From IMG/VR virus record IMGVR_UViG_3300050160_000070: a DNA stretch of 64,000 nucleotides; one strand, 5' to 3'. The position numbers and the translations under genes were made by a program. Every line of letters starts with the position of its first letter. The first letter of the stretch is position 1. This document shows positions 23,180-47,625 of this stretch, one piece after another. The notes below the pieces were generated by a model. It did no database searches, was not told where the DNA came from, and saw nothing but the letters and a program-made list of their open reading frames with translations. The DNA comes from a virus.

Positions 23180-23527
23180 GTGGTTGAAGTTCAGGTCAAA
23201 GGCATCGAAGGTTTTAACATGACCGCGATCACTGTGAACGGGCAGCTGTTCATCCCCGCGGGGCGGCCTGCCAAGCGTCCGGAGGACGGCCCTGCGGTCT
23301 TGAAACTGTACAACATGGCGGTGGGGGATCCGGTTGACCGTTGGCATCCCTACTACAACGACCTGTCGGGCGATAAAATGCGGCGGCGCATTAAGGTGAT
23401 GGGTGACGCCTCTTCCACGCAGCTCACACGTTTCAATGAACTCTGCAAGGAGTACTTCGGCGATCGGTTCATCAAAACCGGCCTGTCGAAGGATGGCGAC
23501 GCGTTCGTTCGTCTGAAGACCTGTTGA
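23180..23527 (+). CDS. hypothetical protein
   Basis: GTG after GAGG. Confidence 0.7.
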   Translation: MVEVQVKGIEGFNMTAITVNGQLFIPAGRPAKRPEDGPAVLKLYNMAVGDPVDRWHPYYNDLSGDKMRRRIKVMGDASSTQLTRFNELCKEYFGDRFIKTGLSKDGDAFVRLKTC

Positions 23528-23597
23528 CAAAACGGTGTGAGGAGATGTACTATCTCCTCACTGATTCACACAACCGCTCACCGAAAGGAGCACACCC

Positions 23598-23806
23598 ATG
23601 TCCAAGTTCTGCGCAAGCCGATCGATCAGCTGGACAAGGCCGCAATCGCCGCCCAAGAGCTCGTCGCCAACGGCCTGCAGGATCGAGGCATCACCGCCGA
23701 CATGCTCGCCGACCTCATGCTGATGGGCGACGACTCGCTCTTCGGCGAACCGGACGGCTGCGACGGCAAGTGCGACACGTGCACCCTGCACGGCACGGTG
23801 CACTGA
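23598..23806 (+). pseudogene. small protein with apparent 1-nt frameshift after codon 4
   Basis: GGAG SD + ATG TCC AAG TTC, but the codon-biased body (LRKPIDQL...) is in another frame; one extra C would restore MSKFLRKP. Confidence 0.6.
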
Positions 23807-23808
23807 TC

Positions 23809-24090
23809 ATGCGCCACCACCCACAAAACGGGTGGTTTTGCTGTAGCGAGTTCATCCGAGCCGCTACGGCAATCCACAAGGCCGCGATGACTGAGCACAC
23901 CCGCTGGCTGGGTGAGCCGGCCTGCAAGTACGTTCAGCTGTACATCGACCAGCGCACCGGCGACTTCATCATCCGTGACATGCGCGGCTCGAAGCTAACG
24001 CATGAGCAGGTGTACGCGATGTTCCCGGAGCTTGAGGCGGATGTGCCGGTCCTGGAGCATTCGGTTGCTGTCGGCTGGACGGAGCCCTGA
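23809..24090 (+). CDS. hypothetical protein
   Basis: ATG 2 nt after previous stop. Confidence 0.7.
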   Translation: MRHHPQNGWFCCSEFIRAATAIHKAAMTEHTRWLGEPACKYVQLYIDQRTGDFIIRDMRGSKLTHEQVYAMFPELEADVPVLEHSVAVGWTEP

Positions 24091-24093
24091 GCG

Positions 24094-24366
24094 ATGGCAT
24101 ACTACCCGTTCCTTGCATTGCACCCGACTGAAGACGGGGTGGCTGTCAGCATCACGAACATCAGCACTGTTAATTGTTTTGATGGTGCTTGGAGCGTCGC
24201 TCCCAACAAGGCACATGCTGAATTCGGTTGGGATTCACCGCTCCACACCAACAAGAGCGGTGGTTACGGCATCAGAAGCTTGAAGAGCATTCACTGCTGT
24301 CAAGTCATTAGCATGCAGATGAGCGAATACATTGAGCTCGTCATGCAACACGCTGGGAAGCGTTGA
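24094..24366 (+). CDS. hypothetical protein
   Basis: Operon packing. Confidence 0.65.
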   Translation: MAYYPFLALHPTEDGVAVSITNISTVNCFDGAWSVAPNKAHAEFGWDSPLHTNKSGGYGIRSLKSIHCCQVISMQMSEYIELVMQHAGKR

Positions 24367-24443
24367 GCGCTGCACACAACTGTGTTGACCCGAACGCTCG
24401 GTTGTGAGATAGTATCCGTACTGTCAACCAACCGAGCACAACC

Positions 24444-25277
24444 ATGCTTGTTACCACTGAAGTCAAGAGCCGAGTCGAAGCGAAACTGAAGGCAGGTATC
24501 GCCCTGGCCGAGGCCAAGTACGGCCAGAAGTTCGCCTACCCGAAGGTCACTTACGACCTGAGCGGCACCACAGCCGGCACTGCCGACTACGTGCACTGGC
24601 ACATCAAGCTGAACGCCGGCCTGCTGATGCGCAACGTCGATACGTTCATCGAGCGCACCGTGCCACACGAACTCGCCCACCTGATCACTGACCGTGTCTA
24701 CCCGGAAGCGCATCGAGGCCGTGGCTTCACCTTGACCTCCCGGGGCTACAAACGCGAAAAGCGCGAAGTTCACGGCCCAAAGTGGCAGTCGGTCTGCTAT
24801 GTGCTCGGCATGACTGACGTCACCCGCTGCCACAGCTACGACACGACCGAGGCGGGCCGCAAGAAAGCCCGCTACGAATGGCAGTGCACCGGCTGCCAGA
24901 AGGTGATCCAGCTCGGCCCGAAGCACAACAAGGCGCAAGAGCTGTACGGCTCCGTTCACCACAAGGGTTGCAGTGGCCACAAGCTGGTCAAGCCGGGCAC
25001 AGCTGCTCCCGCTGCAACCCCGGCTTCGCTGCCGCCTCTGCCGCCTCTGCCGAAGCCGGTTGTTGACCACTGGGTCAACACGCTGCGCCAGGCAACCCCG
25101 GCTCCGGCTGCACCTGTCGCTGCCCCGAAGACGTACGGCTCGAAGCTCGAGCACTGCCGTGCGATCTACGCAGCGAACCGCTCTCAGGGCCGGGCTGCCG
25201 TGATCAAGCTGTTCATCAGCCAAGCGGGTTGCACGCAGGCGGGTGCTTCCACGTACTACCACACCTGCAATAAGTAA
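24444..25277 (+). CDS. sprT: SprT-family zinc metalloprotease fused to C-terminal HTH-like domain
   Basis: TVPHELAHL (HExxH), VHGPKW, RCHSY, YEWQCTGC; Pro/Ala linker; SKLEHCRAIY...AGCTQAGASTYY. Confidence 0.85.
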   Translation: MLVTTEVKSRVEAKLKAGIALAEAKYGQKFAYPKVTYDLSGTTAGTADYVHWHIKLNAGLLMRNVDTFIERTVPHELAHLITDRVYPEAHRGRGFTLTSRGYKREKREVHGPKWQSVCYVLGMTDVTRCHSYDTTEAGRKKARYEWQCTGCQKVIQLGPKHNKAQELYGSVHHKGCSGHKLVKPGTAAPAATPASLPPLPPLPKPVVDHWVNTLRQATPAPAAPVAAPKTYGSKLEHCRAIYAANRSQGRAAVIKLFISQAGCTQAGASTYYHTCNK

Positions 25278-25352
25278 TCTGCCCCGTTGAGTGTACGGTG
25301 GAGTGATGGGATAGTCACTCCACCATAACAACTGCATCACAAGGAGATGCCA

Positions 25353-25853
25353 ATGTTGAGCAAGAAACAACGCATCCTGACCATGCTGCGCCAGATCGGC
25401 ACAGACGTCAAGCGCGAGGTCTGTACGATCAACCACGGCGGCTGCTGTGTGTATGCAGCAGAGATTGCACGATCGCTGGAATCGATCAAGGGCGTCTCGG
25501 TTGAAGTTGTGGCTGGTGGTGATGCGTGCTTGACGGATTTGCGCCACCAGTTCGGCACGCTGCAAATCCCGATGCGGGAACTGGAACGCAACGGGGTGTC
25601 GTTCTGGCACGTTGGTGTGCGGTTCAAGTACCGGAACCAGCTGTTCACGCACGACACAGATGCCACCATCATCGGCGGTGACGTTGTTGGTGATGACCTG
25701 CGGTTCCAACCGCTGAACAGTGGTTTCACCGTCGCTGAAGCCCAGCACCTGGCCACTCACGGCAACTGGAACGATACGTTCAATCGCAAGCACATTCCGA
25801 AGATGGCCAAGATCATCAAGAAGCATTTCGCTCAGTTTCACGCTGTTGCCTGA
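25353..25853 (+). CDS. hypothetical protein
   Basis: AAGGAG SD. Confidence 0.75.
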   Translation: MLSKKQRILTMLRQIGTDVKREVCTINHGGCCVYAAEIARSLESIKGVSVEVVAGGDACLTDLRHQFGTLQIPMRELERNGVSFWHVGVRFKYRNQLFTHDTDATIIGGDVVGDDLRFQPLNSGFTVAEAQHLATHGNWNDTFNRKHIPKMAKIIKKHFAQFHAVA

Positions 25854-25905
25854 TCGCTAAGCATCAGAGATAGTCTCTACATCAACAAACAACGGAGTAC
25901 GCAAA

Positions 25906-26055
25906 GTGTCCGACGATCTGACCCGCACTCAACGCCAGCAACCGGCCAAGAGGACCCGCCAAGCTGATCGCTTCGACAGCAAGGCCCGCCGTGCTGCCCG
26001 CAACGAGCGCCAGCGCGCGCTGGAGCACGTGCGCATCCGCGAAGCCCAGGAGTAA
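25906..26055 (+). CDS. 49-aa Arg-rich peptide
   Basis: GTG after CGGAG; follows TTGCCT-17-GATAGT promoter. Confidence 0.6.
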   Translation: MSDDLTRTQRQQPAKRTRQADRFDSKARRAARNERQRALEHVRIREAQE

Positions 26056-26301
26056 GGCGCCCGCTGTTGACATGAACGCGAGTTCATAAGATAGTGAGCA
26101 CACTGAACAACGAGAGGAATTTGATAGTGCTGAGCTGACAGGGCTACGATGCAACAAGTGCCCGCCTAAAAGTTGCCCTCGGTAATCTGAGACTGGATTA
26201 TTAGAGGTTGCCCACGCAAAAGTGGCCCGGTTGACCGGACTCACGAAAAAGGGTAAAGTCTACCAAGACGAATCAGATCAACGAAGTGCAAGGAGCACCG
26301 A

Positions 26302-26493
26302 ATGTCCCGAAACAACAAGACCGTCCGCAACCTGGCGATCGCCAAGAAGTTCAGCGAACTGCGCAAGAACGGCGGCGGCGGCCCGGCCAAGACCCAGCCG
26401 CAACACGGCAAGAAGAGCGCCTGGTGGCAGAAGTTCCCCAGCTACGCCGCCTACCTGGCCGGCGCCAAGCGTGCCGCCAAGCAGGACTCCTGA
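26302..26493 (+). CDS. small basic protein
   Basis: AAGGAG SD; Lys-rich 63 aa. Confidence 0.75.
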   Translation: MSRNNKTVRNLAIAKKFSELRKNGGGGPAKTQPQHGKKSAWWQKFPSYAAYLAGAKRAAKQDS

Positions 26494-26652
26494 GTCCCGT
26501 TGACGTCATCGAGTCTTTGTGTTTCACTTGATGGCTGAAATCGCCCAGTTGACGTAACGTCAGAGATCAACGATAGTTACGTCACTGGTTAAGCAAACAC
26601 GAACGCAACCAGTAGTTTTTCAAACCTCAACTCTCCCGAAAGGAGCTGCACC

Positions 26653-27321
26653 ATGTCCAAGACCACCAACGCCTCGATCCTGTCCACCGCCGTCGCTGCC
26701 GCCATGGGCGCCATCGTGATCCAGAAGCAGGGCGAAGTCGAAACCCGCTACAAGGTCGCCGGTTTCGCCGAAGACCGCAACGGCACCATGAAGGACGCCA
26801 GCAAGTCGGCCTACGTCGTGCTGAAGGGCGAATCCGACGAAGCGATCGTCATCAACGTCCACCCGACCGCCGCCCAACGCCTGCTGAAGCGTGGCACCGA
26901 CGGCGGCGAGCTGTCCCTGGCCGTCCTGCCGGAGAAGAAGGCCAAGGTCGAAAAGGCCCGCACCCCGCGCTCCGAGTCGAAGAAGGCCAAGGCCCTGAAG
27001 CTGGTGCTGACCGGGCAGCAGGTCGACGGCTGGTCGCGCAAGGCGATCCTCGAGAAGATGCAGGCTGACCTGGGCATCTCGGCCTCGTGCGCCAACACCT
27101 ACTACCAGAACATCAATTCGGGCAAGTGGGCGATGACCGAAGAAGAGATGACCGCCGCTGGCATCGCCTTCGAAGCCGACGCCGCCGCCGACGCGGGCAC
27201 CGACGAACAGGCCGCTGCCGCCGAAGGCGATGCCAGCGCCGAAGGTCAACCGGCCGCTGAGGCCAACGACGAGCCGGCCGCCGTTGCTCCGAGCGCCGAC
27301 CAGGCTCCGAGCGCCGAGTAA
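26653..27321 (+). CDS. HTH-like repeat-family protein, paralog of 43246-43794, acidic tail
   Basis: GTMKDASKSAYVVL..VHPTAAQRLLKRG and SKKAKAL..LGISASCANTYYQN. Confidence 0.85.
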   Translation: MSKTTNASILSTAVAAAMGAIVIQKQGEVETRYKVAGFAEDRNGTMKDASKSAYVVLKGESDEAIVINVHPTAAQRLLKRGTDGGELSLAVLPEKKAKVEKARTPRSESKKAKALKLVLTGQQVDGWSRKAILEKMQADLGISASCANTYYQNINSGKWAMTEEEMTAAGIAFEADAAADAGTDEQAAAAEGDASAEGQPAAEANDEPAAVAPSADQAPSAE

Positions 27322-27332
27322 TTCGGCCCAGC

Positions 27333-27359
27333 GAAGAGAGGCGGGCAACCGCCCTCTTC
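27333..27359 (+). terminator. GCAA-tetraloop hairpin after stop
   Basis: GAAGAG-A-GGCGG-GCAA-CCGCC-CTCTTC. Confidence 0.55.
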
Positions 27360-27416
27360 CACTATCCTGCTGAATGTGGGATAGTGGAAGAGTCATATCC
27401 ACAACGGAGCTTTGTG

Positions 27417-27833
27417 ATGGTCGAAATCAAAGTGTTCACCGGTAAAGAGGCCGCTACCGCCGCCTCCTTGGCGATTGAGCATCACCTGTTCGTGTCTGAA
27501 CACGGGTGGGAGTTGTGCGACCGCTTGCGGTGGGTTGAGTCGTTGTGCTCCGGAGGAACGATCGCCCTGGCGTTCGACGGAAACAAGCCGATTGGGGTTG
27601 GTTTGATCCGACACCACGCCGACGACTACGCAACGTACGTCAAGCCCGATCATCGCCGAAAAAAGATCGGCTCTCAGATGCTTCAGAAGCTGCGAGAAGA
27701 CGGTTTCTTCGTCAATCAGTGTGTCGGCACCGGTGCTGTCGGATCAAACGCTTTCTGGCGTGTTAACGAAGTCCGTCGCTTCGAGATGTACTCCGAGACG
27801 GACGAGGAGACTGGTTGCTTTATTGACGGATGA
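27417..27833 (+). CDS. GNAT-family acetyltransferase
   Basis: LAFDGNKPIG..YVKPDHRRKKIGSQML (motif A) ..SNAFW. Confidence 0.8.
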   Translation: MVEIKVFTGKEAATAASLAIEHHLFVSEHGWELCDRLRWVESLCSGGTIALAFDGNKPIGVGLIRHHADDYATYVKPDHRRKKIGSQMLQKLREDGFFVNQCVGTGAVGSNAFWRVNEVRRFEMYSETDEETGCFIDG

Positions 27834-27869
27834 GGTGTATAGTCACCCCACCGCAACCGAGGACACAAC

Positions 27870-28235
27870 ATGTCTGCAATCGTCACCAAGCAATCACTCG
27901 AGCAGATGCTCGAAGCAGCCGACACGGAAACCAAGGGCCGCATCATCGGTCGCGCGTTGGTTGGCCTGCTTCGACGCCAGACCGCTGAAGAGCAGGCGTC
28001 GAACGAGACGACGGTGAACAATAACGTCGGCTTCGCCGGCTGCGACGCCAAGAGCGGCAGCATCACCGCGAAGTACTTCCTCTCGCACGGCCGGCTCGAG
28101 CAGTGGCAGATCGATCGCTGGATGAAGCCTTCGTGCGGCTATCCGCGTATCTGCAAGTACGATCGCCAGCTGAACGAGATCGCGCAGGCCAAAGCAGCTC
28201 GTCGTGCCCAACAACCGCAACTGGAGCTGCAATGA
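27870..28235 (+). CDS. hypothetical protein
   Basis: GAGGA SD. Confidence 0.75.
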   Translation: MSAIVTKQSLEQMLEAADTETKGRIIGRALVGLLRRQTAEEQASNETTVNNNVGFAGCDAKSGSITAKYFLSHGRLEQWQIDRWMKPSCGYPRICKYDRQLNEIAQAKAARRAQQPQLELQ

Positions 28236-28411
28236 AGCTGAACGAAGACACGCCTGCTGTCCCGGCAATCGAGACGTTGCGTGACCAGCAGGCGTTCTTC
28301 ACCACACCGAAGGACGGTCCGACGCTGCAACCTGACTTTGAACGCTGGTTCTGGTGCGGTATTCCGATCCAGAACTGCGACGAAGCCAGCATCTGCTGCA
28401 TGGGCCACTGA
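28232..28411 (+). CDS. small hypothetical protein
   Basis: ATGA overlap with previous stop. Confidence 0.6.
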   Translation: MKLNEDTPAVPAIETLRDQQAFFTTPKDGPTLQPDFERWFWCGIPIQNCDEASICCMGH

Positions 28412-28491
28412 TCTGACCGCTTGACAATTCCTGTGTCTCACAGGATAGTCCCTATACCGTCAACCAACCGCTCTTGAAAGGAGCAACTGAA

Positions 28492-28902
28492 ATGAGTCTC
28501 TACAGCAAGCAAGACTACCGCGATGCGGGTCACGGCGTGATGTTCTGGGCGTTCGTCGTCGGGCTGATCATCCTGGCCGGCATTGTGATCAAGCTGGTCT
28601 TCTTCCCCGCGGAGCTGATCAGCAAGACGTTCGACGCCGACCGCGCGATCCGCAAGTACGAGTGGTTCCACGAAGCCGCCGCCCAGATCGACGCCAAGCG
28701 CAACGACATCTCCGCCCACACCGCCCTGGTCGCGCAGTCGTTCGGCACCGAGAAGAACCGCCTGATGATCGAGAAGGCCGGCATGCAGCAAGCGTGTCGC
28801 GACCTCGTCGCTCGCTACAACGCCGAGTCGACCAAGGTCAACTCCGTGATCTTCAAGGGCATGTCCGCCCCGAATTCGTTCTCCCTCACCACCTGCGACT
28901 AA
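28492..28902 (+). CDS. single-TM membrane protein
   Basis: AAGGAG SD; hydrophobic residues ~14-36. Confidence 0.8.
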   Translation: MSLYSKQDYRDAGHGVMFWAFVVGLIILAGIVIKLVFFPAELISKTFDADRAIRKYEWFHEAAAQIDAKRNDISAHTALVAQSFGTEKNRLMIEKAGMQQACRDLVARYNAESTKVNSVIFKGMSAPNSFSLTTCD

Positions 28903-28915
28903 GGAGCAGCACACC

Positions 28916-29469: not shown

Positions 29470-29512
29470 GATTAACGATAGGATTTCAGTTATAGTAATC
29501 CTATCGTTAATC
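29470..29512 (+). promoter_or_regulatory. -10 box in loop of a perfect 16-bp hairpin
   Basis: GATTAACGATAGGATT-TCAGTTATAGT-AATCCTATCGTTAATC; preceded by a second hairpin CTAGTAGAGA/TCTCTACTAG. Confidence 0.75.
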
Positions 29513-30916: not shown

Positions 30917-30920
30917 GCTG

Positions 30921-30961
30921 TTGACGGCGAAGCGTAGATGAGATAAGATACGCTTCGCCGT
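30921..30961 (+). promoter_or_regulatory. hairpin promoter driving the RNA cluster
   Basis: TTGACG-17-TAAGAT; 13-bp perfect arms ACGGCGAAGCGTA/TACGCTTCGCCGT. Confidence 0.85.
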
Positions 30962-31056
30962 GTGAAGGTAGTGAAGTCTGGGGGCTGGCGTGAGAGCGCT
31001 AAGCCAGCTGGAGGTGGCGTCGGGTGTGGGCCTGCCAGCATCGTTCTTTGAAAATT

Positions 31057-31202
31057 AGTATCCTATGATCATCGCCGTCGGCGGCTGCATGTGGGCGGCA
31101 TCGCCGGCCGGTACGGATAGCACCTGATTCCATAAATGGATAGGGTGTGATTCTTGAAAGCATGTGTGGCTGTTGTCGAACGGCGATGATCATAGGATAC
31201 TA
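31057..31202 (+). ncRNA. structured RNA closed by a 23-bp perfect stem
   Basis: TAGTATCCTATGATCATCGCCGT / ACGGCGATGATCATAGGATACTA; stem extends with wobble pairs to a branched head. Confidence 0.6.
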
Positions 31203-31211
31203 GACGTAACG

Positions 31212-31401
31212 AAGATAGATTGAGTGGCACAGGATGCTTGGTTGCAACCACAATCAGGCGGATCTACGGCTAGGAAGACGGGCCCGTCAACCCAGCTGAG
31301 TCAGAGGACAAACCAACAGGCCTGGTAGCACGGAGTGGTATCCGAATATTCCAGGTGAGGTTTGGCGGCAGGCGACCGCGTTGTGCCACTCAATCTATCT
31401 T
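31212..31401 (+). ncRNA. structured RNA closed by a 20-bp perfect stem
   Basis: AAGATAGATTGAGTGGCACA / TGTGCCACTCAATCTATCTT enclosing several hairpins. Confidence 0.6.
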
Positions 31402-31411
31402 TTGAATCAGT

Positions 31412-31487
31412 GCCGGCTTAGCTCAGTTGGTAGAGCAACGCTCTTGTAAAGCGTAGGTCATCTGTTCGAGTCAGATAGCCGGCACCA
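31412..31487 (+). tRNA. trnT: tRNA-Thr (anticodon TGT)
   Basis: 76-nt cloverleaf GCCGGCT..AGCCGGC-ACCA; anticodon arm ACGCT-CTTGTAA-AGCGT. Confidence 0.97.
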
Positions 31488-32180: not shown

Positions 32181-32251
32181 CCGCCCAGTTGACGTTTGTG
32201 AGGAGATATCGTATTATCTCCTCACTGACACAAGCAACCGGAGTAATCCAA

Positions 32252-32847: not shown

Positions 32848-32997
32848 ATGGCGCTGACACCGAAGACCACCCGAGTCACGGTGTATGTGGATGGGGAGGT
32901 GCTCCACGAGCACCACTTCCCCATTTTCCTGCTGCCGTTCATGCGCTGGCTGTGCCGCATGCTGGGTGCGACGATGCACACGCCCTGGTACAGTTGA
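32848..32997 (+). CDS. 49-aa hypothetical protein
   Basis: Abuts previous stop; its TGA lies within the next -35. Confidence 0.55.
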   Translation: MALTPKTTRVTVYVDGEVLHEHHFPIFLLPFMRWLCRMLGATMHTPWYS

Positions 32998-33052
32998 CAA
33001 GATAGGTGGTTGGTAGTATTATCTCGTTACTGTCAACCAAACGAGGAATGCA

Positions 33053-33691: not shown

Positions 33692-33784
33692 CCACTCCTG
33701 TTGCGAAAAGACGGCAGCAGAGGTATTATCTCTCTGTCGTCGAACAAACGACATCAACCGCAAACAACTGCAAGGAACTGCACC

Positions 33785-34366: not shown

Positions 34367-34453
34367 TCAAGCTGAGAGTCTACAAAGACTCTCGTTGACA
34401 ACTGAATGGGGAGGTCTTATGATCTCCCCATTCGCTATTTCCAAATCGCAAAC

Positions 34454-36036: not shown

Positions 36037-36115
36037 GGGCCGGAAGCTTAAGCCCGGTATAAGCGCCCGACTCATAATCGGAGGATAGTGGGTTCGAATC
36101 CCACCCGGCCTACCA
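36037..36115 (+). tRNA. tRNA with CAT anticodon, most like tRNA-Ile2 (lysidine type); Met not excluded
   Basis: GGGCCGG/CCGGCCT-ACCA; arm CCCGA-CTCATAA-TCGGA; C4-G69, C5-G68 and C29-G41 fit E. coli TilS determinants; A rather than U at position 8. Confidence 0.9.
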
Positions 36116-36213
36116 CAATCCACTAGTAAACGCGCAGTTGTTGCGTGAAGTGTAGACATTATGCGAATAACATCGTATAGTATCTCCCACTAGTAAACAT
36201 TCTGGAGAAAGCA

Positions 36214-37244: not shown

Positions 37245-37550
37245 ATGAAGCGCTGGTCATACGCCAGCGCCGCATCATCTCATCACGGGACGATGCGGTG
37301 CAACTGCTGTGGCAAGGCGGTCGAGGGCGAATACCGCTACCGCGAAGGTCGAAGCGGCTACGTAGTCGAACGCCGTGTGTGCTCAGCGGGCGATGCGGAG
37401 TGGGCTCGGCGCGATGCACAGGTCGAGGCCGCCCGCATCCGGACCAAGGAGCAACTGGAAGCGTACAAGGCGTTCCGCGACAAGTGGGATGAAGATGCCT
37501 TGGACGAGGCGATCGCTTTCCTGGAGAAGCACCTCCGGTATCTCGGTTGA
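37245..37550 (+). CDS. hypothetical protein with CxxC/C zinc motif
   Basis: CNCCGK..VCS; its TGA lies within the next -35. Confidence 0.7.
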   Translation: MKRWSYASAASSHHGTMRCNCCGKAVEGEYRYREGRSGYVVERRVCSAGDAEWARRDAQVEAARIRTKEQLEAYKAFRDKWDEDALDEAIAFLEKHLRYLG

Positions 37551-37603
37551 CGTTGTGGTGAGGATATGAGATACTATCCTCACCGTAACGCATTGGAGCA
37601 CAC

Positions 37604-37921
37604 GTGACCGTCAAGCACATCATCGACCAGTTGGTTGATCGCGCTACCGAGCTTGGTTGACGACAAGCTCGGTACCAATTTCCTGGCATCACTGACGACT
37701 TGTATGAGGCGGCTGACGGCATGACGGACAAGGAGACCAAAGCGCTCCTTGAGGGCACGCCTATCCTCGCTCGGCGCAACATCCTTCGCCTGATTTCTGA
37801 AGCCCCTGTTGAAACTTGGTACTGTGATGATGGCTGGGTGGATTATGTGGCTGAATATGTGTGCAGGAATCGCAAGTCGCTCGGTAAGCTGATTACGCAC
37901 ATCAAGCAATTGGCCAGTTGA
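37604..37921 (+). pseudogene. gene interrupted by in-frame TGA (37658-37660)
   Basis: Hairpin promoter + GGAG SD + GTG; reads VTVKHIIDQLVDRATELG*RQARYQFPG... and continues 87 codons in the same frame to the TGA at 37919-37921. Confidence 0.65.
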
Positions 37922-37976
37922 CGTTGTGGCAAGGTTGCGTTATAGTATCTTCACTGTAACGCAATCGGGAACTGAA

Positions 37977-38456: not shown

Positions 38457-38527
38457 TCAGTTGACGCTGCGGTGGGATGATGTTACAATCATCCCACCAG
38501 TTAGTAACAGCCACATGAGGTTTCAGC

Positions 38528-38797: not shown

Positions 38798-38868
38798 CTT
38801 CGGTTGACGCGGCTGCGGGATGGGGTTACAATCATCCCACTAGTAAACATTCTGCTCTGAGGCACATC

Positions 38869-39386: not shown

Positions 39387-39458
39387 GAAGTCAACGGTTG
39401 CCGTCTTGGTGAGGATGCGTTATAGTATCCTCACCGTAACGCATTGGAGCAACGTAAT

Positions 39459-39773: not shown

Positions 39774-39924
39774 CCACGTTGCCATCTGAGTGGGATGATT
39801 GTTACAATAATCCCACTAGTAAACATTCTCGGTACACATCATGATCTATCTCAAGGTTGCCCTGTTGTTCTCTCCCGTCATTGCGATGATGATTGCAATC
39901 ATCGTGAAGAGGGAGTGGTGAATC

Positions 39925-40407: not shown

Positions 40408-40500
40408 CTGAAATGGGCGGACAATTCCGCCCACGTTGACCAAGCAGCCGGTTTCTGTTATACTGGCTTCACTGTCAAACAACACACGCAAGGAACCGAA

Positions 40501-41007
40501 ATGTCCAAGCAAATCCGCGATCTGTTCAGCAACGTCAACGGCGCCAACTTCATCAGCATCGACACGGAAACGATTCCGAAGCTGACTGGCGGCAAGAAGA
40601 ACCCGATGCAGGGTGCGATCCGCAAGGTGACGATCGGCAGCAACGTGATGGTGTTCTCGAACAAGTCGGGCAGCGCCTACGGTGCGATGGTGGAACGTCG
40701 TCTGCGTCAAGAGGGCAAGGATCCTGCATCGTTCCAACTGAGCGAACGTGCATGGGGCACTCGCGTCGAAGGCACGCCGATCATCGAGCACCACGGTGAA
40801 ACGTACATTGAAGTGATCTTCCTGAAGTCGGGCAAGACTCACTACCTGCACGGCGTGCGTCCGATCAACAAGGCGGAAATCGAAGGCATGCCTGCTGATC
40901 ACGGAGAAAGTGAACAGGGCGGACTGGAAAACAAGGTGATCATTCGCACGATCAAGGCAGACAGCATCAAGCGTGTGGTGATCGACGGGCAAGTCCACAC
41001 GTTCTAA
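40501..41007 (+). CDS. hypothetical phage protein
   Basis: AAGGA SD; strong GC3 bias. Confidence 0.8.
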   Translation: MSKQIRDLFSNVNGANFISIDTETIPKLTGGKKNPMQGAIRKVTIGSNVMVFSNKSGSAYGAMVERRLRQEGKDPASFQLSERAWGTRVEGTPIIEHHGETYIEVIFLKSGKTHYLHGVRPINKAEIEGMPADHGESEQGGLENKVIIRTIKADSIKRVVIDGQVHTF

Positions 41008-41070
41008 GCTGACCAGTTGACAAAGTGAGGAGAGTAGACGATACTCTCCTCACTGACGAGAAAGAGCACC

Positions 41071-41555: not shown

Positions 41556-41618
41556 CCAGTTGACCAAGAGCCAGTATTATGAGATACTGGCTTCACTGTC
41601 AACCAACTGGGACCAACC

Positions 41619-41768
41619 ATGATGGAACAATTTGTTGTTAAGTACTTCCGTGACAGGAAGAACTCAGGTCAGACGGGCATGTGGCTGTGTGAACATGTCT
41701 GTTGTGCTGGATACTGGCATTATCAACAGTTGTCTTTCTTGGGCAAGAAGGATGAGTACTACAGTTGA
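41619..41768 (+). CDS. 49-aa hypothetical protein
   Basis: Single ORF between two near-identical promoter modules. Confidence 0.55.
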   Translation: MMEQFVVKYFRDRKNSGQTGMWLCEHVCCAGYWHYQQLSFLGKKDEYYS

Positions 41769-41846
41769 ACTTTGCGGGCAACTGATCCGTTGACCAACAG
41801 CCAGTATTGTGAGATACTGGCTTCACTGTCAACCAGAGGAACGAAA

Positions 41847-42026
41847 ATGCAAACCTTCTCCGCAACCACCCTTCGTCAACTGCGTGACCATCTGAACTTG
41901 TTGTCTGACGACGCGTTGGACACTGAGATCAAGTGCGTCACGTGTTCGGATGATGTGGAGGATGCTGTTGAAGTGACGATCAGCGACGAGGGCGTCGACA
42001 TCATCGGTCCTGTTGATTGGCTCTGA
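41847..42026 (+). CDS. small acidic protein
   Basis: GAGGA SD. Confidence 0.7.
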   Translation: MQTFSATTLRQLRDHLNLLSDDALDTEIKCVTCSDDVEDAVEVTISDEGVDIIGPVDWL

Positions 42027-42091
42027 CCACTGTTGACCAACGGTGAAGCCTGTGGGATACTGGCTTCACTGTCAACCAACGGAGATCCGAA

Positions 42092-42391
42092 GTGTCCTAC
42101 GTCATCTACAACACCGAAACGCTGCAACGGATGAAGTCGCCGAGCAGTGGCCAGCAGACGTTCGAGACGGAGCGCGTCGCCAAAACGATCCGCACGAAGG
42201 TGCTGAAGAAGGTGGATGCGTCGGAGTCGGAAGCTGCTGAGTGGGTGGTCGCCGAGTACAGCGCGTGGCAGACAGCCGACGTGATGATCACGGTGAAGAG
42301 CCTGATGAACGGCGCTGATGTGCAGATCCGCAAGTCGCAACGGGGCAGCCGCGCCTCCGATCCGAGCATGGAGGGCTACTGGACGATGTGA
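42092..42391 (+). CDS. hypothetical protein
   Basis: GTG after CGGAG. Confidence 0.75.
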   Translation: MSYVIYNTETLQRMKSPSSGQQTFETERVAKTIRTKVLKKVDASESEAAEWVVAEYSAWQTADVMITVKSLMNGADVQIRKSQRGSRASDPSMEGYWTM

Positions 42392-42493
42392 CCAGTTGAC
42401 CATCTGAGTGGGCAGGTTAATACCTGCCCACTTGTCGTGTTTGGTCAATTGTGTTATTATCTCTTTGTCGTTAAACAACTGTAGGAGATCCAA

Positions 42494-42661
42494 ATGATCA
42501 TCACTCTCACGATTCCCGACGAACTGATCAAGAAGACAGCCGAACAACAGGACATGACTGAACAACAAGTGCAGGAGGCGATTCTCAAGCACTACCAAGC
42601 TTATGACAACCAGAAAAACGGTTTGTTGGAAGAGCATGTGAACGACATGCTGAACTTCTGA
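42494..42661 (+). CDS. 55-aa hypothetical protein
   Basis: AGGAG SD. Confidence 0.65.
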   Translation: MIITLTIPDELIKKTAEQQDMTEQQVQEAILKHYQAYDNQKNGLLEEHVNDMLNF

Positions 42662-42665
42662 CCAG

Positions 42666-42712
42666 TTGACCAGCAGTTGATGTGGTGCTATGATGTACCA
42701 CATCAACTGCTG
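42666..42712 (+). promoter_or_regulatory. hairpin promoter, 16-bp perfect arms
   Basis: TTGACC-17-TATGAT; CAGCAGTTGATGTGGT/ACCACATCAACTGCTG, -10 in loop. Confidence 0.9.
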
Positions 42713-42718
42713 AGGAGC

Positions 42719-42916
42719 ATGCACATGGACAAATTCGACAGCTCGGAAGAAGCGACCGCTTTCGTTGACGAACTGGAAGCGATGCTGAACGATCCGCGCC
42801 TACTGGAGTGGGCAAAGTCAACGGATCAGAACTTCGGCACGAATGCACACTCGCATCTGATCCATGCTCGTCGCGCTGTTGACGAGTTCGTCTCGCAGTT
42901 GGACGAAGCGAACTAA
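42719..42916 (+). CDS. small hypothetical protein
   Basis: GAGGAG SD. Confidence 0.7.
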   Translation: MHMDKFDSSEEATAFVDELEAMLNDPRLLEWAKSTDQNFGTNAHSHLIHARRAVDEFVSQLDEAN

Positions 42917-42980
42917 CCTGTTGACCAAATATGAGGAGAGTGGTATTATCTCCTCACTGATTCAACAACAGGAGCTAAGC

Positions 42981-43151
42981 ATGAGCATGAACAAGTTCAT
43001 CATCCGCAACGACGTCACTCACCACTCGTGGGAAGCGTCTGCTAGCGAAGCCCGCCTCTACGCGATCGGCGGCGCCTGGGACGTCGGCACCTACTCGGTG
43101 TTCCGTTCCGACTGCCCGAGCATCTGCCTCTCCGCATTCGACTTCGCCTGA
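42981..43151 (+). CDS. small hypothetical protein
   Basis: CAGGAG SD. Confidence 0.65.
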   Translation: MSMNKFIIRNDVTHHSWEASASEARLYAIGGAWDVGTYSVFRSDCPSICLSAFDFA

Positions 43152-43245
43152 CAACGGTTGAGCCTTACAGTCAACCGCGTTGACCAAATGTGAGGCTGGT
43201 GGGATACTGGCTTCACTGTCAAACAACCAAGCAAGGACACACATC

Positions 43246-43794
43246 ATGTCGCAACTGCAAGCTCTGTTCGCCCCCCTGAAGGATCGTCTCGTTGAAGTGC
43301 GTCAGCGCGACGAGTCGGTCAAGGTGTTCCGCCTCTACGCGCTCAGCGACAAGCAGGGCGTGATGAAGGACTCGAGCAAGGAGCCGTACGTGATCCTGAT
43401 GGAGCAGGGCGGCGCGGTGACGATGTCGATCCACCCGCAGCACGCCTCCCGCCTGATGAAGAAGGGCGAAGACAGCGGCATGAAGCTCCTGGAAGCCGTT
43501 TGCCAAGCGGAGACGGCTGAGGACACCAGTGAGCCTGTGATCGTCGATTCTACGCCGGTTTTGACGGCTTCTCAGCCGGCTGTCGAACCCAAGGCCGCTC
43601 CCGCCGTCGAGCCTGCCGTCGCCGAAGCGCCCGTCAAGGCCGCATCGAAGAAGGATCGCGCGGTGGCGATCTACAAGACGATGGCGGGCAAGCCGCGCAA
43701 GGAGATCGTCGCAGCGTTCATGAGTCAACTGGGCCTCTCCGCCCCCGGTGCTTCGACGTACCACCAGAACTGCAAGTCGGGTCTGTGGTCCTGA
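43246..43794 (+). CDS. HTH-like repeat-family protein, paralog of 26653-27321
   Basis: GVMKDSSKEPYVIL..IHPQHASRLMKKG and SKKDRAVAIY..LGLSAPGASTYHQN. Confidence 0.85.
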   Translation: MSQLQALFAPLKDRLVEVRQRDESVKVFRLYALSDKQGVMKDSSKEPYVILMEQGGAVTMSIHPQHASRLMKKGEDSGMKLLEAVCQAETAEDTSEPVIVDSTPVLTASQPAVEPKAAPAVEPAVAEAPVKAASKKDRAVAIYKTMAGKPRKEIVAAFMSQLGLSAPGASTYHQNCKSGLWS

Positions 43795-43800
43795 CAACAG

Positions 43801-43842
43801 TTGACCAAACGACAAGGAGATGAGACACTCTCCTTGTCGTTT
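43801..43842 (+). promoter_or_regulatory. hairpin promoter, 14-bp perfect arms
   Basis: TTGACC-17-GACACT; AAACGACAAGGAGA/TCTCCTTGTCGTTT. Confidence 0.8.
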
Positions 43843-43860
43843 ATCAATTGGAGAACAGAA

Positions 43861-44091
43861 ATGTTCATCGTGGTCACTGGAAACATCGTCAATTGTGGAG
43901 AACAGACTCCGTCCGACACGATCGGTGATGTTGACAAGTTCCTCTCTCGGGAGGAAGCTCTCTCCTTCATCAAGGAGGGGTTTGAGGAGGAGGAGTGGGA
44001 GTTCTACGAAACTCCGAATGGTTTCTTCCTTCCTGTCAACGAGGATGAGTTGACAGATGGTTACTTTTTCTACCGGTTGATTGTGGTCTAA
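43861..44091 (+). CDS. small acidic protein
   Basis: GGAG SD. Confidence 0.7.
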   Translation: MFIVVTGNIVNCGEQTPSDTIGDVDKFLSREEALSFIKEGFEEEEWEFYETPNGFFLPVNEDELTDGYFFYRLIVV

Positions 44092-44157
44092 CCAGTTGAC
44101 CAAAGTGGGGAGATGTGGTATTATCTCCCCACTGAATCAACAACGGAGCGCATCCAA

Positions 44158-44433
44158 ATGATTTCTGTTTTCGTGTTCGAAGGTGGTGAGGGTGTCGGTG
44201 ATGACAACACCGTCAGTGTCACTGAGTGGTCGGAAGCGGAGCTGATCCGCGTGATCAGCGAATACGTTGGTGAATGCGACGGCGTCGCATGGAAGGATCA
44301 AACGATCGAATTGGCTGATGACAACGGCCCCAAGATCCTCGGCGATACGTTCGAGATTGTCAACGGCAATCTCGCACAAGCTGCCAAGTGCGGCGTTGAT
44401 GGTGGTCAGATCTACGTCGTTCGCTGTATCTGA
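44158..44433 (+). CDS. small acidic protein
   Basis: CGGAG SD. Confidence 0.7.
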   Translation: MISVFVFEGGEGVGDDNTVSVTEWSEAELIRVISEYVGECDGVAWKDQTIELADDNGPKILGDTFEIVNGNLAQAAKCGVDGGQIYVVRCI

Positions 44434-44498
44434 CCAGTTGTCCAAAGCGAGGAGATGTGTTATTATCTCCTCACTGAATCAACAACCGGACACGAACC

Positions 44499-44738
44499 AT
44501 GTACGACAAGCTGATGGCCCGCTTCCCGAAAGTTGAAGCTCTGATCACGGACCTGATCTGTGAAGGCGCTCACCTGACGACCGACGCTGCTGTTGAGGCG
44601 ATTCGTGAAGTGTATGACCGCGAAGGTCCGTACGAATACGCTAAGCGTTTCGGCCTGCTGGTCGACGGCAGCGGCGAAGAGTTCGCGATCGAGTGGATGT
44701 CGTTCTACAACGAATACGCTGGTCGCTCGGTGTATTGA
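44499..44738 (+). CDS. small hypothetical protein
   Basis: Single-gene cassette. Confidence 0.7.
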   Translation: MYDKLMARFPKVEALITDLICEGAHLTTDAAVEAIREVYDREGPYEYAKRFGLLVDGSGEEFAIEWMSFYNEYAGRSVY

Positions 44739-44802
44739 GCGTTGACCAAGATGAGGGGACGAGGTATCATCTCCTCACCTAATCAACAACCGGAGAGCTG
44801 AG

Positions 44803-45102
44803 ATGGCTACCCTCACGATGCACCCGTATGACGCCAGCCGCGTCAGCTGGAACATGGTCGACAAGAGGGCTTCGGCGTTCGCCAGCGACCTCGGGCTTCG
44901 GCCAGGCCACCGCTTCGAGAGCATCTACGACGATGCGTGTGACGACGGGATCTGCATCGTCAACCACAATACCGGACGGGCTGTTGTGTGGGCGCTGCGT
45001 GCGGACGCCACCAGTGAAGCGTTCCGGTTCGTGCCGGCCACCGAGTCCATCCACAAGTACCCGCACATGCAGGGGTGGGAGCTGACGATCTACAACACGT
45101 GA
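44803..45102 (+). CDS. hypothetical protein
   Basis: GGAG SD; single-gene cassette. Confidence 0.75.
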   Translation: MATLTMHPYDASRVSWNMVDKRASAFASDLGLRPGHRFESIYDDACDDGICIVNHNTGRAVVWALRADATSEAFRFVPATESIHKYPHMQGWELTIYNT

Positions 45103-45168
45103 CCAGTTGACCAAACACGAGGAGGGTGGGATACTCTCCTCATTGGTTAAGCAATCAGGAGTCGCAAG

Positions 45169-45351
45169 ATGCACACGTTCGCAAACATGATCCACTTCAT
45201 CAGCACCGCCTACACCGGCGGCGGCCTGAAGAGCATCATTCGCTACATGGGTCTGCAGCACCCCGACCGCGTCACGGACATGTACCTGCGTGGCGAGCCG
45301 GCCAACTACATCGCAGCCGCAACGCTCGCCGTCAATCAGATCGGTGCTTGA
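45169..45351 (+). CDS. small hypothetical protein
   Basis: CAGGAG SD. Confidence 0.7.
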   Translation: MHTFANMIHFISTAYTGGGLKSIIRYMGLQHPDRVTDMYLRGEPANYIAAATLAVNQIGA

Positions 45352-45411
45352 TAGCGTTGACCTAGTAGTGGGGGTGAGGTATTATCCCCTCATAGCAACC
45401 AAGGAGCACAC

Positions 45412-45645
45412 ATGAGCCAGCCCGTCTTTGTCGGCACCGCCTTCACCGGTCAGCCCGTCACCGCTGATGAGAAGGTGGAGTGTCCCGGCTGTGGTGAGTT
45501 GTGCGGACTGCGCAGCACTGGCTGGTTCGATCAGTACCGCGAAGAGAGCAAGGCGTCGCCTGCAGGCGGGGTGTATGTGCACTTCGGTTGCCTGTCACAG
45601 CGCCGGTTCGAAGAGGTCAACGAAGTTCACGCTGTCGCGGGTTGA
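45412..45645 (+). CDS. small zinc-finger-like protein
   Basis: CPGCGELC..HFGC; AAGGAG SD. Confidence 0.7.
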   Translation: MSQPVFVGTAFTGQPVTADEKVECPGCGELCGLRSTGWFDQYREESKASPAGGVYVHFGCLSQRRFEEVNEVHAVAG

Positions 45646-45732
45646 GGGCCAGCACAATGCAGAAGAGCAAGGTTGACTGGTTGGCTGAGCTGAAGTATAC
45701 TTCGGTCAAGGTCAAACAAGGAGAGAAGCAAC

Positions 45733-45987
45733 ATGGACATCAGCGAGCTGATCAAGCAAGTGCGGCGGTGGGTGCTGGGCGCCTGCACCGAGTGGAACGA
45801 GCAGGTGAAACAGTTCGCCGACCTGAACGGCGTTGAGTTCCGCGCGTTTGTTGAGCGCACAGCCAATGTGGTGATCCGCTACATCCGCGGGCAGCAGACG
45901 CTGGACGGCTCGTGCAGTGACCTGGAGTGCACGCTCGCCATCGAGGCACGGCACGTGTTCGGGTGGCATTCGACTTCGGTTGACTGA
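45733..45987 (+). CDS. hypothetical protein
   Basis: AAGGAG SD; promoter TTGACT(45673)-17-TATACT. Confidence 0.7.
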   Translation: MDISELIKQVRRWVLGACTEWNEQVKQFADLNGVEFRAFVERTANVVIRYIRGQQTLDGSCSDLECTLAIEARHVFGWHSTSVD

Positions 45988-46037
45988 ACGAAGGGGGAGG
46001 TGTTATCATCCCCCCTTTTTACCTCAGGAGTTCGTAT

Positions 46038-46406
46038 ATGAACAAGCTGATCGCTTCCCTTATGCTCGCCCTGGCTGGCTTCGCGCAAGCTGCCACGACG
46101 AGCTCGTCAACCAAAGTCGAAGTACTGTCCGCTCAGACAAGTGCTGTGGTTGACTACGGCGCCATGCCACGCATGATGATGTTCCACTCGGAACGCAATG
46201 CGATATCGGTAGACGGCATGATCCTAGTCTGCCTTCGCGAATTCCGCGCGAAGGAGGGTGATTGCACTCACCCAACGACGGGCGAAAACGCTTGGCGTGA
46301 ACTAGGCTCCATCGCTCCAAGCGGCTGGAAGGTTGTTGCGTATGATGTCCGGTTTGTTGGTTCTGGTTACCGATACGTGATCGTGTACTTTGCACGTGTG
46401 AAGTGA
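46038..46406 (+). CDS. secreted protein (signal peptide)
   Basis: MNKLIASLMLALAGFAQA; CAGGAG SD. Confidence 0.75.
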   Translation: MNKLIASLMLALAGFAQAATTSSSTKVEVLSAQTSAVVDYGAMPRMMMFHSERNAISVDGMILVCLREFRAKEGDCTHPTTGENAWRELGSIAPSGWKVVAYDVRFVGSGYRYVIVYFARVK

Positions 46407-46417
46407 TCTCCGGTGAC

Positions 46418-46438
46418 TATCCCGTAAATAGCGGGATA
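46418..46438 (+). promoter_or_regulatory. T4-late-like TAAATA box in a hairpin loop
   Basis: TATCCCG-TAAATAG-CGGGATA upstream of the MKVADLFE gene. Confidence 0.6.
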
Positions 46439-46458
46439 CAGTCAAGGAGACCACTTCA

Positions 46459-46719
46459 ATGAAAGTAGCAGACCTGTTCGAAGGCGCAATGAAGCGCAGT
46501 GACCCGTACGTTAGCGGCGATCGGGAGGGAGCCCCAGCCCCCGCGGCTCCTAAGAAGCGTAAGGTTGATAGGTTCGAGACGATGGCTCGCAAGGCTGGTG
46601 TCAGCGTCGCCGCTGTTCGTAGTGCATGGCACGCCGCTAAGAAGGAAGTCGACATGTCCCGCACCAATGCGTATGCGATTGTACAGCGAAAGGTGATGGA
46701 CCAGCTAGCGGCACGCTGA
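46459..46719 (+). CDS. probable late small basic protein (MKVADLFE N-terminus)
   Basis: AAGGAG SD; TAAATA upstream. Confidence 0.75.
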   Translation: MKVADLFEGAMKRSDPYVSGDREGAPAPAAPKKRKVDRFETMARKAGVSVAAVRSAWHAAKKEVDMSRTNAYAIVQRKVMDQLAAR

Positions 46720-46802
46720 GCCTGCTGATCGCTGCGCACAACTGCGTTGACCACCGGTGAGGGTTGATGTATCATCCCCTCATTGATTCAATAAGGACGC
46801 AA

Positions 46803-47021
46803 GTGATGACTCTCCTCGAGCAGATCAACCAGCAACAACAGGTTGTGCATGCTGCTGAAGATGCCCGCCGTGAGGCGGCCGTGCAGCTGAACAAGCTCCT
46901 TGACCAACGCATGGACTGCGACCATGACTTCAGCAAGCCGTTGAAGGGATACGAACACGAAGGTGGTCATTGCGTCAAGTGTGGCATCAACGAAGTGTTC
47001 TGGGCTTGCACCAAGCGTTGA
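46803..47021 (+). CDS. small protein with C-terminal Cys/His cluster
   Basis: CDH..HCVKCG; single ORF between near-identical promoters. Confidence 0.7.
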   Translation: MMTLLEQINQQQQVVHAAEDARREAAVQLNKLLDQRMDCDHDFSKPLKGYEHEGGHCVKCGINEVFWACTKR

Positions 47022-47098
47022 TCGTGCGATGACCTAAGTTGACCATTGGTGAGGGTTGATGTATCATCCCCTCATTGATTCAACTGGAGAACAATCAC

Positions 47099-47335
47099 AT
47101 GACCAACGAAGACCAAGTCCGCTCTCTCGTCAAAGGCACTACTGTTGCAAAGGCGGTTGAAGTGCTGGAGCGGCTAAAGAAGCTCGCCGCATTGAAGATC
47201 GCCTCTGACAATGAAGACTTCAACGCGTGCGACTACAGCGGCGGCAACTACGACGATGCCTTCGACATTGGTGAGTGGTGCGGTAAAGTGCAGGCAGCTC
47301 GTGACCTGCTGGATGAGCTCGGGATCGAGTACTGA
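47099..47335 (+). CDS. small hypothetical protein
   Basis: GGAG SD. Confidence 0.7.
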   Translation: MTNEDQVRSLVKGTTVAKAVEVLERLKKLAALKIASDNEDFNACDYSGGNYDDAFDIGEWCGKVQAARDLLDELGIEY

Positions 47336-47340
47336 GCTGT

Positions 47341-47556
47341 ATGAGTGAACAAACAAATGCGTACGGTGAGCGTTGGTTGGTGTGTCCGGAGTGCAGTAGC
47401 CGAGACGTTGCCGTTACCGCTGAGCAAATGCTGATGGTGAACACCGGCGACCATTACTGCCATAGCGTCAAGGCGCATGACGATGATGCAAAAGCTAGGT
47501 GCCTGGATTGTGGCTGGGCTGGTGCGCGCAGCGACCTCAGCACTGAAAGCGACTGA
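47341..47556 (+). CDS. small zinc-ribbon protein
   Basis: CPEC..CLDC. Confidence 0.7.
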   Translation: MSEQTNAYGERWLVCPECSSRDVAVTAEQMLMVNTGDHYCHSVKAHDDDAKARCLDCGWAGARSDLSTESD

Positions 47557-47625
47557 ACCAGACCGCGTTGACCTACGATAGGGGGATGAGAGATCATCCC
47601 CCTATTCTATTATAGGAGTCGAATA

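Follow-up and report, generated by a model that had tools for sequence, protein, structure and literature searches.

The early region of an uncultured jumbo myovirus, contained in a 64,000-nucleotide stretch of IMG/VR virus record IMGVR_UViG_3300050160_000070, carries an array of small-gene promoter cassettes in which a hairpin, with arms that differ from promoter to promoter, encloses the -10 box. We refer to the whole of the analysed stretch as the window, which is the reverse strand of bases 107327-171326 in the 174,565-bp record, itself rated approximately 50% complete. We interpret the array as consisting of cassettes of the promoter-early stem-loop (PeSL) type described in T4-like phages, with the hairpin serving as an RNA insulator on read-through transcripts and overlaid on those segments of the promoter that are free of sequence requirements; we place the probability of this reading at about 0.6.

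An array of single-gene early cassettes

The early region contains about 80 plus-strand genes, most of which code for fewer than 150 amino acids, and approximately 40 single-gene cassettes of the sigma70 type lie on the plus strand from window position 23524 to 47605. The elements follow one another in a constant order: the upstream gene's stop codon, a -35 element of the form G-TTGAC-N, a 17-nt spacer, the -10 box, a pyrimidine-rich stretch, an A/C-rich leader (for example ACTGATTCAACAAC), a GGAG, and the ATG. The upstream stop codon is found 5-12 nt before the -35 box or within the TTGAC itself, and the GGAG and ATG are typically 26-44 nt downstream of the -10 box. TTGAC is invariant in 36 of 37 cassettes, there is a G at position -1 in 34 of the 37, and the usual -10 hexamers are TATTAT, TATGAT, TACAAT and GATACT. 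The pattern GTTGAC-N15-19-TANNNT is matched 28 times in the window with 1.65 matches expected, and a consensus scan of the 28-48 kb interval identifies 52 promoter-like sites, compared with 7.8 +/- 2.9 in shuffled sequences; judged as a sequence class, the promoters are evidently real. The pyrimidine-rich discriminator is followed by ACTGACAC or ACTGATTC (as at window 32218-32240), an arrangement that we take to resemble the discriminator and start region of Escherichia coli rrnB P1, and if this likeness is a true one the cassette promoters may form short-lived open complexes.

The 5' arm of the hairpin lies within the 17-nt spacer and the 3' arm within the discriminator, reaching to the predicted start site, and the -10 box occupies either the loop or the beginning of the 3' arm. 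An earlier note on this DNA had described dozens of promoters with the -10 hexamer in or at a hairpin loop, and a helix of at least five pairs does enclose the -10 box in 32 of the 37 promoters. Stems range from 5 to 17 pairs and loops from 3 to 12 nt, with loops of 8-12 nt being common. The 3' arm opens with the hexamer's fourth base in 17 of these 32 cassettes, and in 16 of the 32 it stops 13-16 nt past the hexamer's start, which is where a sigma70 start site is expected. The centres of dyad symmetry gather around the upstream border of the -10 box, with the sum of paired coordinates between -1 and +1 in 18 of the 37 cassettes and between -5 and +5 in 28; two of four cassettes that were added by hand are mis-registered (one placed at 25283, 4 nt off its true -35 at 25287-25292, and 39779 by 1 nt), which shifts their dyad-centre values and leaves their fold energies unaffected.

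Hairpin excess and promoter-specific pairing

Within 25 kb we count 16 perfect inverted repeats with arms of at least 10 bp and loops of 3-16 nt, whereas 200 first-order Markov (Markov-1) simulations average 0.35 and never exceed 3, and the expectation that inverted repeats here exceed chance is thus borne out. Of these repeats, 13 come immediately after a TTGAC, and 15, as assessed by eye, enclose a -10-like hexamer. Every arm pair that the earlier note listed is present where that note placed it, with those at 25297, 34404 and 23537 being perfect 10-bp cores.

The arms are mostly variants of a purine-rich 5' sequence resembling GTGAGGAG and a pyrimidine-rich 3' sequence resembling CTCCTCAC, and so the cassettes constitute a paralogous family with compensated changes. 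Because an arm consensus shared among paralogues could mimic pairing, we used a chimera control in which the spacer, the -10 box and 20 nt were folded in their native combination and in all joins of the 5' half of one promoter with the 3' half of another. The mean folding energy is -15.3 kcal/mol for the native sequences and -8.8 kcal/mol for the chimeras, and not one of 10,000 re-pairings reaches the native mean; since folding is lost when halves are swapped, the arms match within their own promoter to an extent beyond the family consensus. Counting from the hexamer's first base, positions +6 to +13 are paired to the spacer in 22-27 of 27 cassettes, using 3-6 pair types at each position, and the covariation among paralogous cassettes is therefore real. 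The proposal that arms vary widely while complementarity is kept is therefore upheld in respect of the covariation, although the arms are not unrelated to one another and belong mostly to one family. Near-identical cassettes (46747 and 47039; 41560, 41790 and 42033) precede unrelated genes.

The earlier note also raised two other ideas, operators and the N4 precedent. Palindromic operators, recognized by dimeric phage or host regulators and overlapping the -10 box, would account for an inverted-repeat geometry that overlaps the core promoter, and several early proteins do have a C-terminal module in common that could be thought of in this context. However, arm sequences differ widely from site to site with pairing kept, such that one regulator could not read all of them, and the spacing between half sites ranges from 3 to 15 nt; we reject this reading and regard it as very improbable. 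Under the second, the hairpins would mark promoters read by an RNA polymerase of the phage itself, in the style of N4 vRNAP, a virion enzyme whose early promoters have a short conserved hairpin with a 3-nt loop and no sigma70 boxes. There is indeed a hairpin at each promoter, but the sites in this phage have full sigma70 -35 and -10 consensus boxes with 17-nt spacing, stems of 5-17 pairs, loops of 3-12 nt and varied sequence, and the N4 precedent is not applicable; the reading is rejected as scarcely credible.

The cassettes and related hairpins are listed below by window coordinates, with (+) denoting the plus strand.

23524..23561 (+): cassette; perfect 10-bp arms 23537-23546 / 23552-23561; -10 TACTAT
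24385..24437 (+): cassette; hairpin displaced downstream, with arms 24396-24414 / 24419-24437 that are 79% complementary; -10 GATAGT in the 5' arm
25287..25324 (+): cassette; -35 TTGAGT; perfect 10-bp arms at 25297 / 25315; -10 GATAGT
27354..27392 (+): perfect 14-bp hairpin, its 3' arm containing GATAGT; -35 weak; GC-rich hairpin immediately upstream
29470..29512 (+): perfect AT-rich 16-bp hairpin (29470/29497) with a TATAGT loop and a weak -35; second hairpin upstream
30921..30961 (+): cassette; GC-rich 13-bp arms (30924/30949); -10 TAAGAT in the loop; heads a gene-free structured RNA region and tRNA-Thr
32189..32225 (+): cassette; 11-bp arms GTGAGGAGATA / TATCTCCTCAC (32198); -10 TATTAT
32994..33039 (+): cassette; 12-pair helix with two G.U, displaced downstream of the -10
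33701..33741 (+): cassette; -35 TTGCGA; helix around TATTAT; end coordinate approximate
34395..34433 (+): cassette; perfect 10-bp core (34404) that extends to 13-14 pairs; -10 TATGAT
37547..37590 (+): cassette; 16-pair helix including two G.U; -10 GATACT
37918..37966 (+): cassette; 12-14-pair helix displaced downstream of the -10 TATAGT
38461..38498 (+): cassette; 11-bp arms GGTGGGATGAT / ATCATCCCACC (38471); -10 TACAAT
38804..38844 (+): cassette; weaker helix GGGATG / CATCCC around TACAAT
39398..39442 (+): cassette; -35 TTGCCG; helix GGTGAGGAT / ATCCTCACC around TATAGT; end coordinate approximate
39779..39817 (+): cassette; -35 TTGCCA; 14-nt arms, 93% complementary, around TACAAT
40436..40470 (+): cassette; helix of only 4-7 pairs; spacer variable in sequencing runs X16 and X19
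41017..41054 (+): cassette; perfect 13-bp arms (41024/41042); -10 GATACT
41560..41593 (+): cassette of the GGCTTCACTG subfamily; 9-bp arms AGCCAGTAT / ATACTGGCT; -10 within the 3' arm
41790..41822 (+): cassette; near-copy of the 41560 cassette, preceding an unrelated gene
42033..42072 (+): cassette of the GGCTTCACTG subfamily; 13-pair helix
42396..42432 (+): cassette; 11-bp arms (42407), 4-nt loop and T-rich tail; second promoter at 42432-42460
42666..42712 (+): cassette; perfect 16-bp arms (42671/42697); -10 TATGAT in the loop; -30.7 kcal/mol
42921..42956 (+): cassette; 8-bp arms TGAGGAGA / TCTCCTCA; -10 TATTAT
43180..43216 (+): cassette; 11-12-pair helix with four G.U
43801..43842 (+): cassette; perfect 14-bp arms (43807/43829); -10 GACACT
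44096..44133 (+): cassette; 11-bp arms AGTGGGGAGAT / ATCTCCCCACT (44104); -10 TATTAT
44438..44475 (+): cassette; -35 TTGTCC; helix GAGGAGAT / ATCTCCTC enclosing TATTAT; approximate end coordinate
44742..44780 (+): cassette; 11-pair helix; a variant in run X19 converts an A.C mismatch to a G-C pair
45107..45141 (+): cassette; GATACT enclosed by a helix of 9-10 pairs
45357..45396 (+): cassette; 11-pair helix, three of the pairs being G.U
45980..46018 (+): cassette; TTTTT comes after the helix; resembles an intrinsic terminator
46747..46785 (+): cassette; 13-pair helix
47039..47079 (+): cassette; near-copy of the 46747 cassette, preceding an unrelated gene
47568..47605 (+): cassette; perfect 12-bp arms ATAGGGGGATGA / TCATCCCCCTAT (47578/47594); -10 GATCAT

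The hairpin of cassette 40436 is among the weakest in the array, and its spacer (window 40434-40450) has four substitutions in runs X16 and X19, with one more in X16 just upstream of the -35. Run X16, which is of a single coded organism, contains approximately 60% of the region's sampled words.

Relationship to PeSL cassettes

PeSL cassettes have been described in the T4-like phages RB49 and phi1, where the stem-loops most often lie in the interval separating -35 from -10 or else overlap the -10 element (Arbiol et al. 2010, PMC2839356, fig. 2 legend), and the stem-loop of RB49 PeSL211/210 cut lacZ read-through as strongly as rrnB T1 (PMC2839356). We scanned RB49 bases 114001-164000 with the same script as was used for this phage and find two subclasses. 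Eight promoters have a GGGGATC-type hairpin inside the spacer, and in another eight the arms, such as GGGAGTA / TACTCCC, flank the -10 box, the discriminator supplies the 3' arm, and an A/C-rich leader comes next, with no U-tract; our own scan likewise finds no T run after the stem in the cassette between ORFs 210 and 211. Because RB49 shows the same layout in the same scan, we place the cassettes of this phage within the known PeSL kind, as the earlier note had aptly suggested, and they thus correspond to the second RB49 subclass with stems that are longer and more varied.

The likenesses to the PeSLs of RB49 and phi1 are extensive. They include a near-consensus sigma70 early promoter with N17 spacing, an upstream stop codon just before the -35 with a Shine-Dalgarno sequence and ATG following, and a hairpin whose 5' arm falls within the spacer and whose 3' arm falls within the discriminator, so that the loop contains the -10; a purine-rich 5' arm, a pyrimidine-rich 3' arm, an A/C-rich leader, G.T in the stems and the absence of a U-tract; and one cassette for each tiny ORFan, with gene content and order variable between relatives. 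There are also differences, in that stems here reach 16-17 bp, compared with 6-8 bp in RB49, and their sequences are far more diverse, and this phage, at 55-60% GC, is an uncultured jumbo myovirus and not a Krischvirus. The PeSLs of T4/PST and KVP40/nt-1 (Comeau et al. 2014, PMC4122927) are similarly composite modules of promoter and stem-loop located between small early genes in hyperplastic regions, although there the stem-loops are just upstream of the promoter (PMC4122927, fig. 3 legend), whereas here they are positioned around the -10.

The phage and its relatives

The window encodes rIIA, rIIB, a portal protein, a tail sheath of the T4 type and an SbcC-like nuclease, and the sheath shares 50-59% identity with its counterparts in the jumbo phages XacN1, RsoM2USA, CM1/RAS14 and Xoo-sp13, making XacN1, RsoM2USA and CM1 the nearest cultured relatives by this protein. 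GC content in the region of interest is 55-60%, and phage DNA is present in many leaf-litter metagenomes; it is from this gene set, the sheath identity and the leaf-litter occurrence that the phage is assigned as an uncultured jumbo myovirus. The sequencing data in which phage DNA occurs are leaf-litter metagenome contigs and one run of a single coded organism. Six copies from other samples are 99.98-100% identical to the phage and thus offer no orthologous compensatory changes to score, and comparison of four sequencing runs with the window reveals few variants and one low-depth joint. A megablast search with 6 kb against cultured phages gave no match, searches of IMG/VR and metagenomes for close relatives of rIIA and of a 182-aa early protein found none, and there are no exact matches to two cassette DNA patterns in viral or metagenome contigs.

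The arrangement is conserved in a more diverged relative, the ENA contig L032, which has a 168-aa early protein in common with this phage (65% identity). L032 has 19 plus-strand promoters with hairpins that straddle the -10, and the arms are different from those of this phage; native sequences fold at a mean of -14.0 kcal/mol and chimeras at -8.6 kcal/mol, none of 10,000 re-pairings reaches the native value, and a U-tract is again absent. Only 12 genes of the window match L032, and gene order is scrambled between the two. A homologue of the 168-aa protein (window 40501-41007) is also encoded, in the same neighbourhood, by L011, a 363-kb IMG/VR contig of 37% GC that is more distant from the phage than L032. 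At approximately 2300-8700 of L011, at least 9 of 21 promoters (TTGACA-N17-TATAAT) have a hairpin of 6-8 bp with a 4-nt loop that abuts the -10 box, and its arms vary (GCGC, GCCC, GTGC) with pairing retained. L011 is thus similar in having a promoter-specific hairpin with varying arms, but it differs in that the hairpin is entirely within the spacer, as in the other common RB49 subclass. Among cultured phages, XacN1 has about 240 sigma70-type promoters, of which 13 of 73 sampled fold at -10 kcal/mol or below, and RsoM2USA has no excess of sigma70-type promoters; hairpins straddling the -10 were not seen in the IMG/VR relatives L014 and L016-L022, nor in L035.

RNA hairpin or DNA structure

The mismatches within the helices are distributed asymmetrically between the strands, with 17 G.T and 4 A.C when near-duplicate cassettes are removed (binomial p = 0.007), the null being that strand-symmetric mutation gives equal counts of the two. 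In 28 of the 37 cassettes plus-strand RNA folds better than minus-strand RNA. RNA tolerates G.U while the other strand of a cruciform would carry A.C, and the excess of G.T, the plus-strand folding and the large loops together speak for a sense-transcript hairpin rather than a cruciform. With the 3' arm ending at the predicted start, the promoter's own transcript would not contain the hairpin, and both arms would be present only in RNA derived from upstream.

A cruciform acting as a sensor of supercoiling would extrude at the A/T-rich -10 and distort the geometry of the promoter, such that topology switches the early promoters. The perfect 10-16 bp arms around an A/T-rich centre in 15 promoters are in keeping with this, as is the position of the dyad centres noted above, and Horwitz and Loeb are said to have provided an engineered precedent for a cruciform promoter in 1988. 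However, the 17:4 ratio of G.T over A.C makes the minus-strand hairpin worse than that of the plus strand, the common loops of 8-12 nt hinder extrusion, and the register drifts by several bases, with some helices lying wholly downstream of the -10. The strand asymmetry and loops of up to 12 nt thus speak against the cruciforms that the earlier note had offered, and we consider this explanation unlikely.

It is also conceivable that the hairpins have no role in expression and are kept perfect by intramolecular template switching (quasipalindrome correction) or as recombination hot spots by which cassettes spread and are swapped, with complementarity arising as a by-product of mutation or recombination. 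Unrelated genes have near-identical cassettes at their edges, the genes shared with L032 are in a scrambled order, and the crossovers of RB49 mini-circles fall in or beside the stem-loop (PMC2839356). In addition, a contig from run X19, a freshwater metagenome with a diverged relative, joins 42914 to 42032, both of which are cassette edges; the end of gene 42719-42916 meets cassette 42033 with 10 other letters between them, at a depth of 4.9 and with one side of only 40 nt, and this joint may hint at cassette swapping. But template switching predicts neither the excess of G.T over A.C nor the fact that in this phage, L032 and RB49 alike the arms occupy the two free segments of the promoter, and the arms of most cassettes are too different to provide homology for recombination. 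An origin of this sort is, in our view, improbable as the explanation for the array.

Termination and read-through

Although we favour an RNA hairpin acting on read-through transcripts, several observations weigh against that interpretation. First, chimeras likewise favour the plus strand (-1.19 kcal/mol, compared with -2.10 kcal/mol), such that about half of the strand difference in energy is compositional, and since the chimeras share this bias we prefer the count of mismatch types to the asymmetry in fold energy. Second, the AT-rich block that lies upstream of the -35 in PeSLs is absent in this phage, the upstream 25 nt being 43.8% AT compared with 42.9% regionally. Third, no RNA runs containing the phage were found among the sequencing data in which its DNA occurs. 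Fourth, there is no U-tract after the stems, where T accounts for 1.78 of each 8 nt (22%, compared with a background of 19.5%), and this agrees with the earlier note in so far as most hairpins were said there to have none. Finally, textbook terminators, with an A-tract, GC stem, tetraloop and T-tract, are present elsewhere in the genome.

A consensus scan identifies 7 terminator-like sites, compared with 15.7 in shuffled sequences, and one of these is a cassette hairpin. Like intrinsic terminators, the cassettes would place a stable RNA hairpin shortly past a stop codon, but the hairpins are without a U-tract and their loops are larger and A/T-rich. For the most part they do not appear to be canonical intrinsic terminators, with only those at 45980 and 42396 having that appearance, and efficient intrinsic termination seems unlikely for most cassettes because the U-tract is missing while the same genome has textbook terminators. 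The suggestion that the hairpins are U-less terminators of read-through therefore fares unevenly: action on read-through RNA is favoured by the 17:4 mismatch ratio and by the exclusion of the hairpin from the promoter's own transcript, whereas the missing U-tract counts against simple intrinsic termination. We note that textbook, bidirectional-looking terminators lie outside the early array at window positions 2220, 10457, 12609 and 56481, and at genome positions beyond the window.

A model for the cassettes

We propose that the composite cassette would let every tiny early gene stand as an independent unit. Host sigma70 RNA polymerase would use the -35 and -10 boxes, and the arms would be accommodated in those parts of the promoter that are sequence-free, the 17-bp spacer and the discriminator up to the start site, leaving the A/T-rich -10 as the loop; the low sequence constraint of the spacer and discriminator probably explains this placement. 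The gene's own message would start past the hairpin, at the putative start site, with its unstructured A/C-rich leader first. In RNA that we infer to read through from the cassette upstream, the hairpin would fold right after the upstream stop codon, and there it could either attenuate the read-through, a role shown for one RB49 stem-loop, or cap the 3' end of the upstream message.

Insulation by attenuation, with read-through being blunted or stopped, is a possibility that we advance tentatively, and protection of the upstream message from exonucleases by capping of its 3' end is a more doubtful one. Two other roles can be imagined, in which the hairpin is a hand-over device, with the upstream polymerase stalled or released on the overlapping promoter and re-initiating there, or in which cruciforms switch the early array off with supercoiling; we consider these quite unlikely. 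If hand-over were true, the chain of cassettes would recycle polymerase locally and equalise the output of each gene.

Other features in and near the early array

The hairpin promoter at 30921 heads a segment of about 450 nt (window 30962-31411) that is without a credible gene, folds into two long-stemmed domains and extends as far as tRNA-Thr (31412-31487). The fold energy of the 619-nt gap is -277 kcal/mol, and the tRNA is the sole Rfam match here. A tRNA-Met (CAT) is present within the early array at 36037-36115, followed at 36153 by a promoter-like TAGACA-17-TATAGT. At window 22378-22465 a GC-rich hairpin follows a stop codon, and after it comes a perfect 11-bp helix (22430-22440 / 22452-22462) in which a stretch containing CTCC is paired to the next gene's GGAG and to the bases immediately preceding its ATG; since the helix covers these, it is possible that this is a translational lock rather than a promoter hairpin.

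The early proteins encoded at 21928-22380, 24444-25277, 26653-27321 and 43246-43794 are related through a common C-terminal module of about 45 aa (30-44% identity) and differ in their N-terminal parts. The product of the gene at 49783-50232 matches Pfam SmpB (PF01668) in the precomputed annotation of an identical contig, L026.

Significance

The PeSL design, in which a hairpin loop contains the -10, is known from T4-like coliphages, and these observations extend it to a high-GC jumbo lineage in leaf litter and other metagenomes. The dozens of diversified arm pairs provide an unusually clean case of natural covariation which, together with the G.U asymmetry, argues for action at the RNA level on read-through transcripts. 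The presence of textbook terminators elsewhere in the same genome, set against cassette hairpins that have no U-tract, sharpens the question of whether PeSL stem-loops terminate transcription, cause the polymerase to pause, or protect 3' ends.

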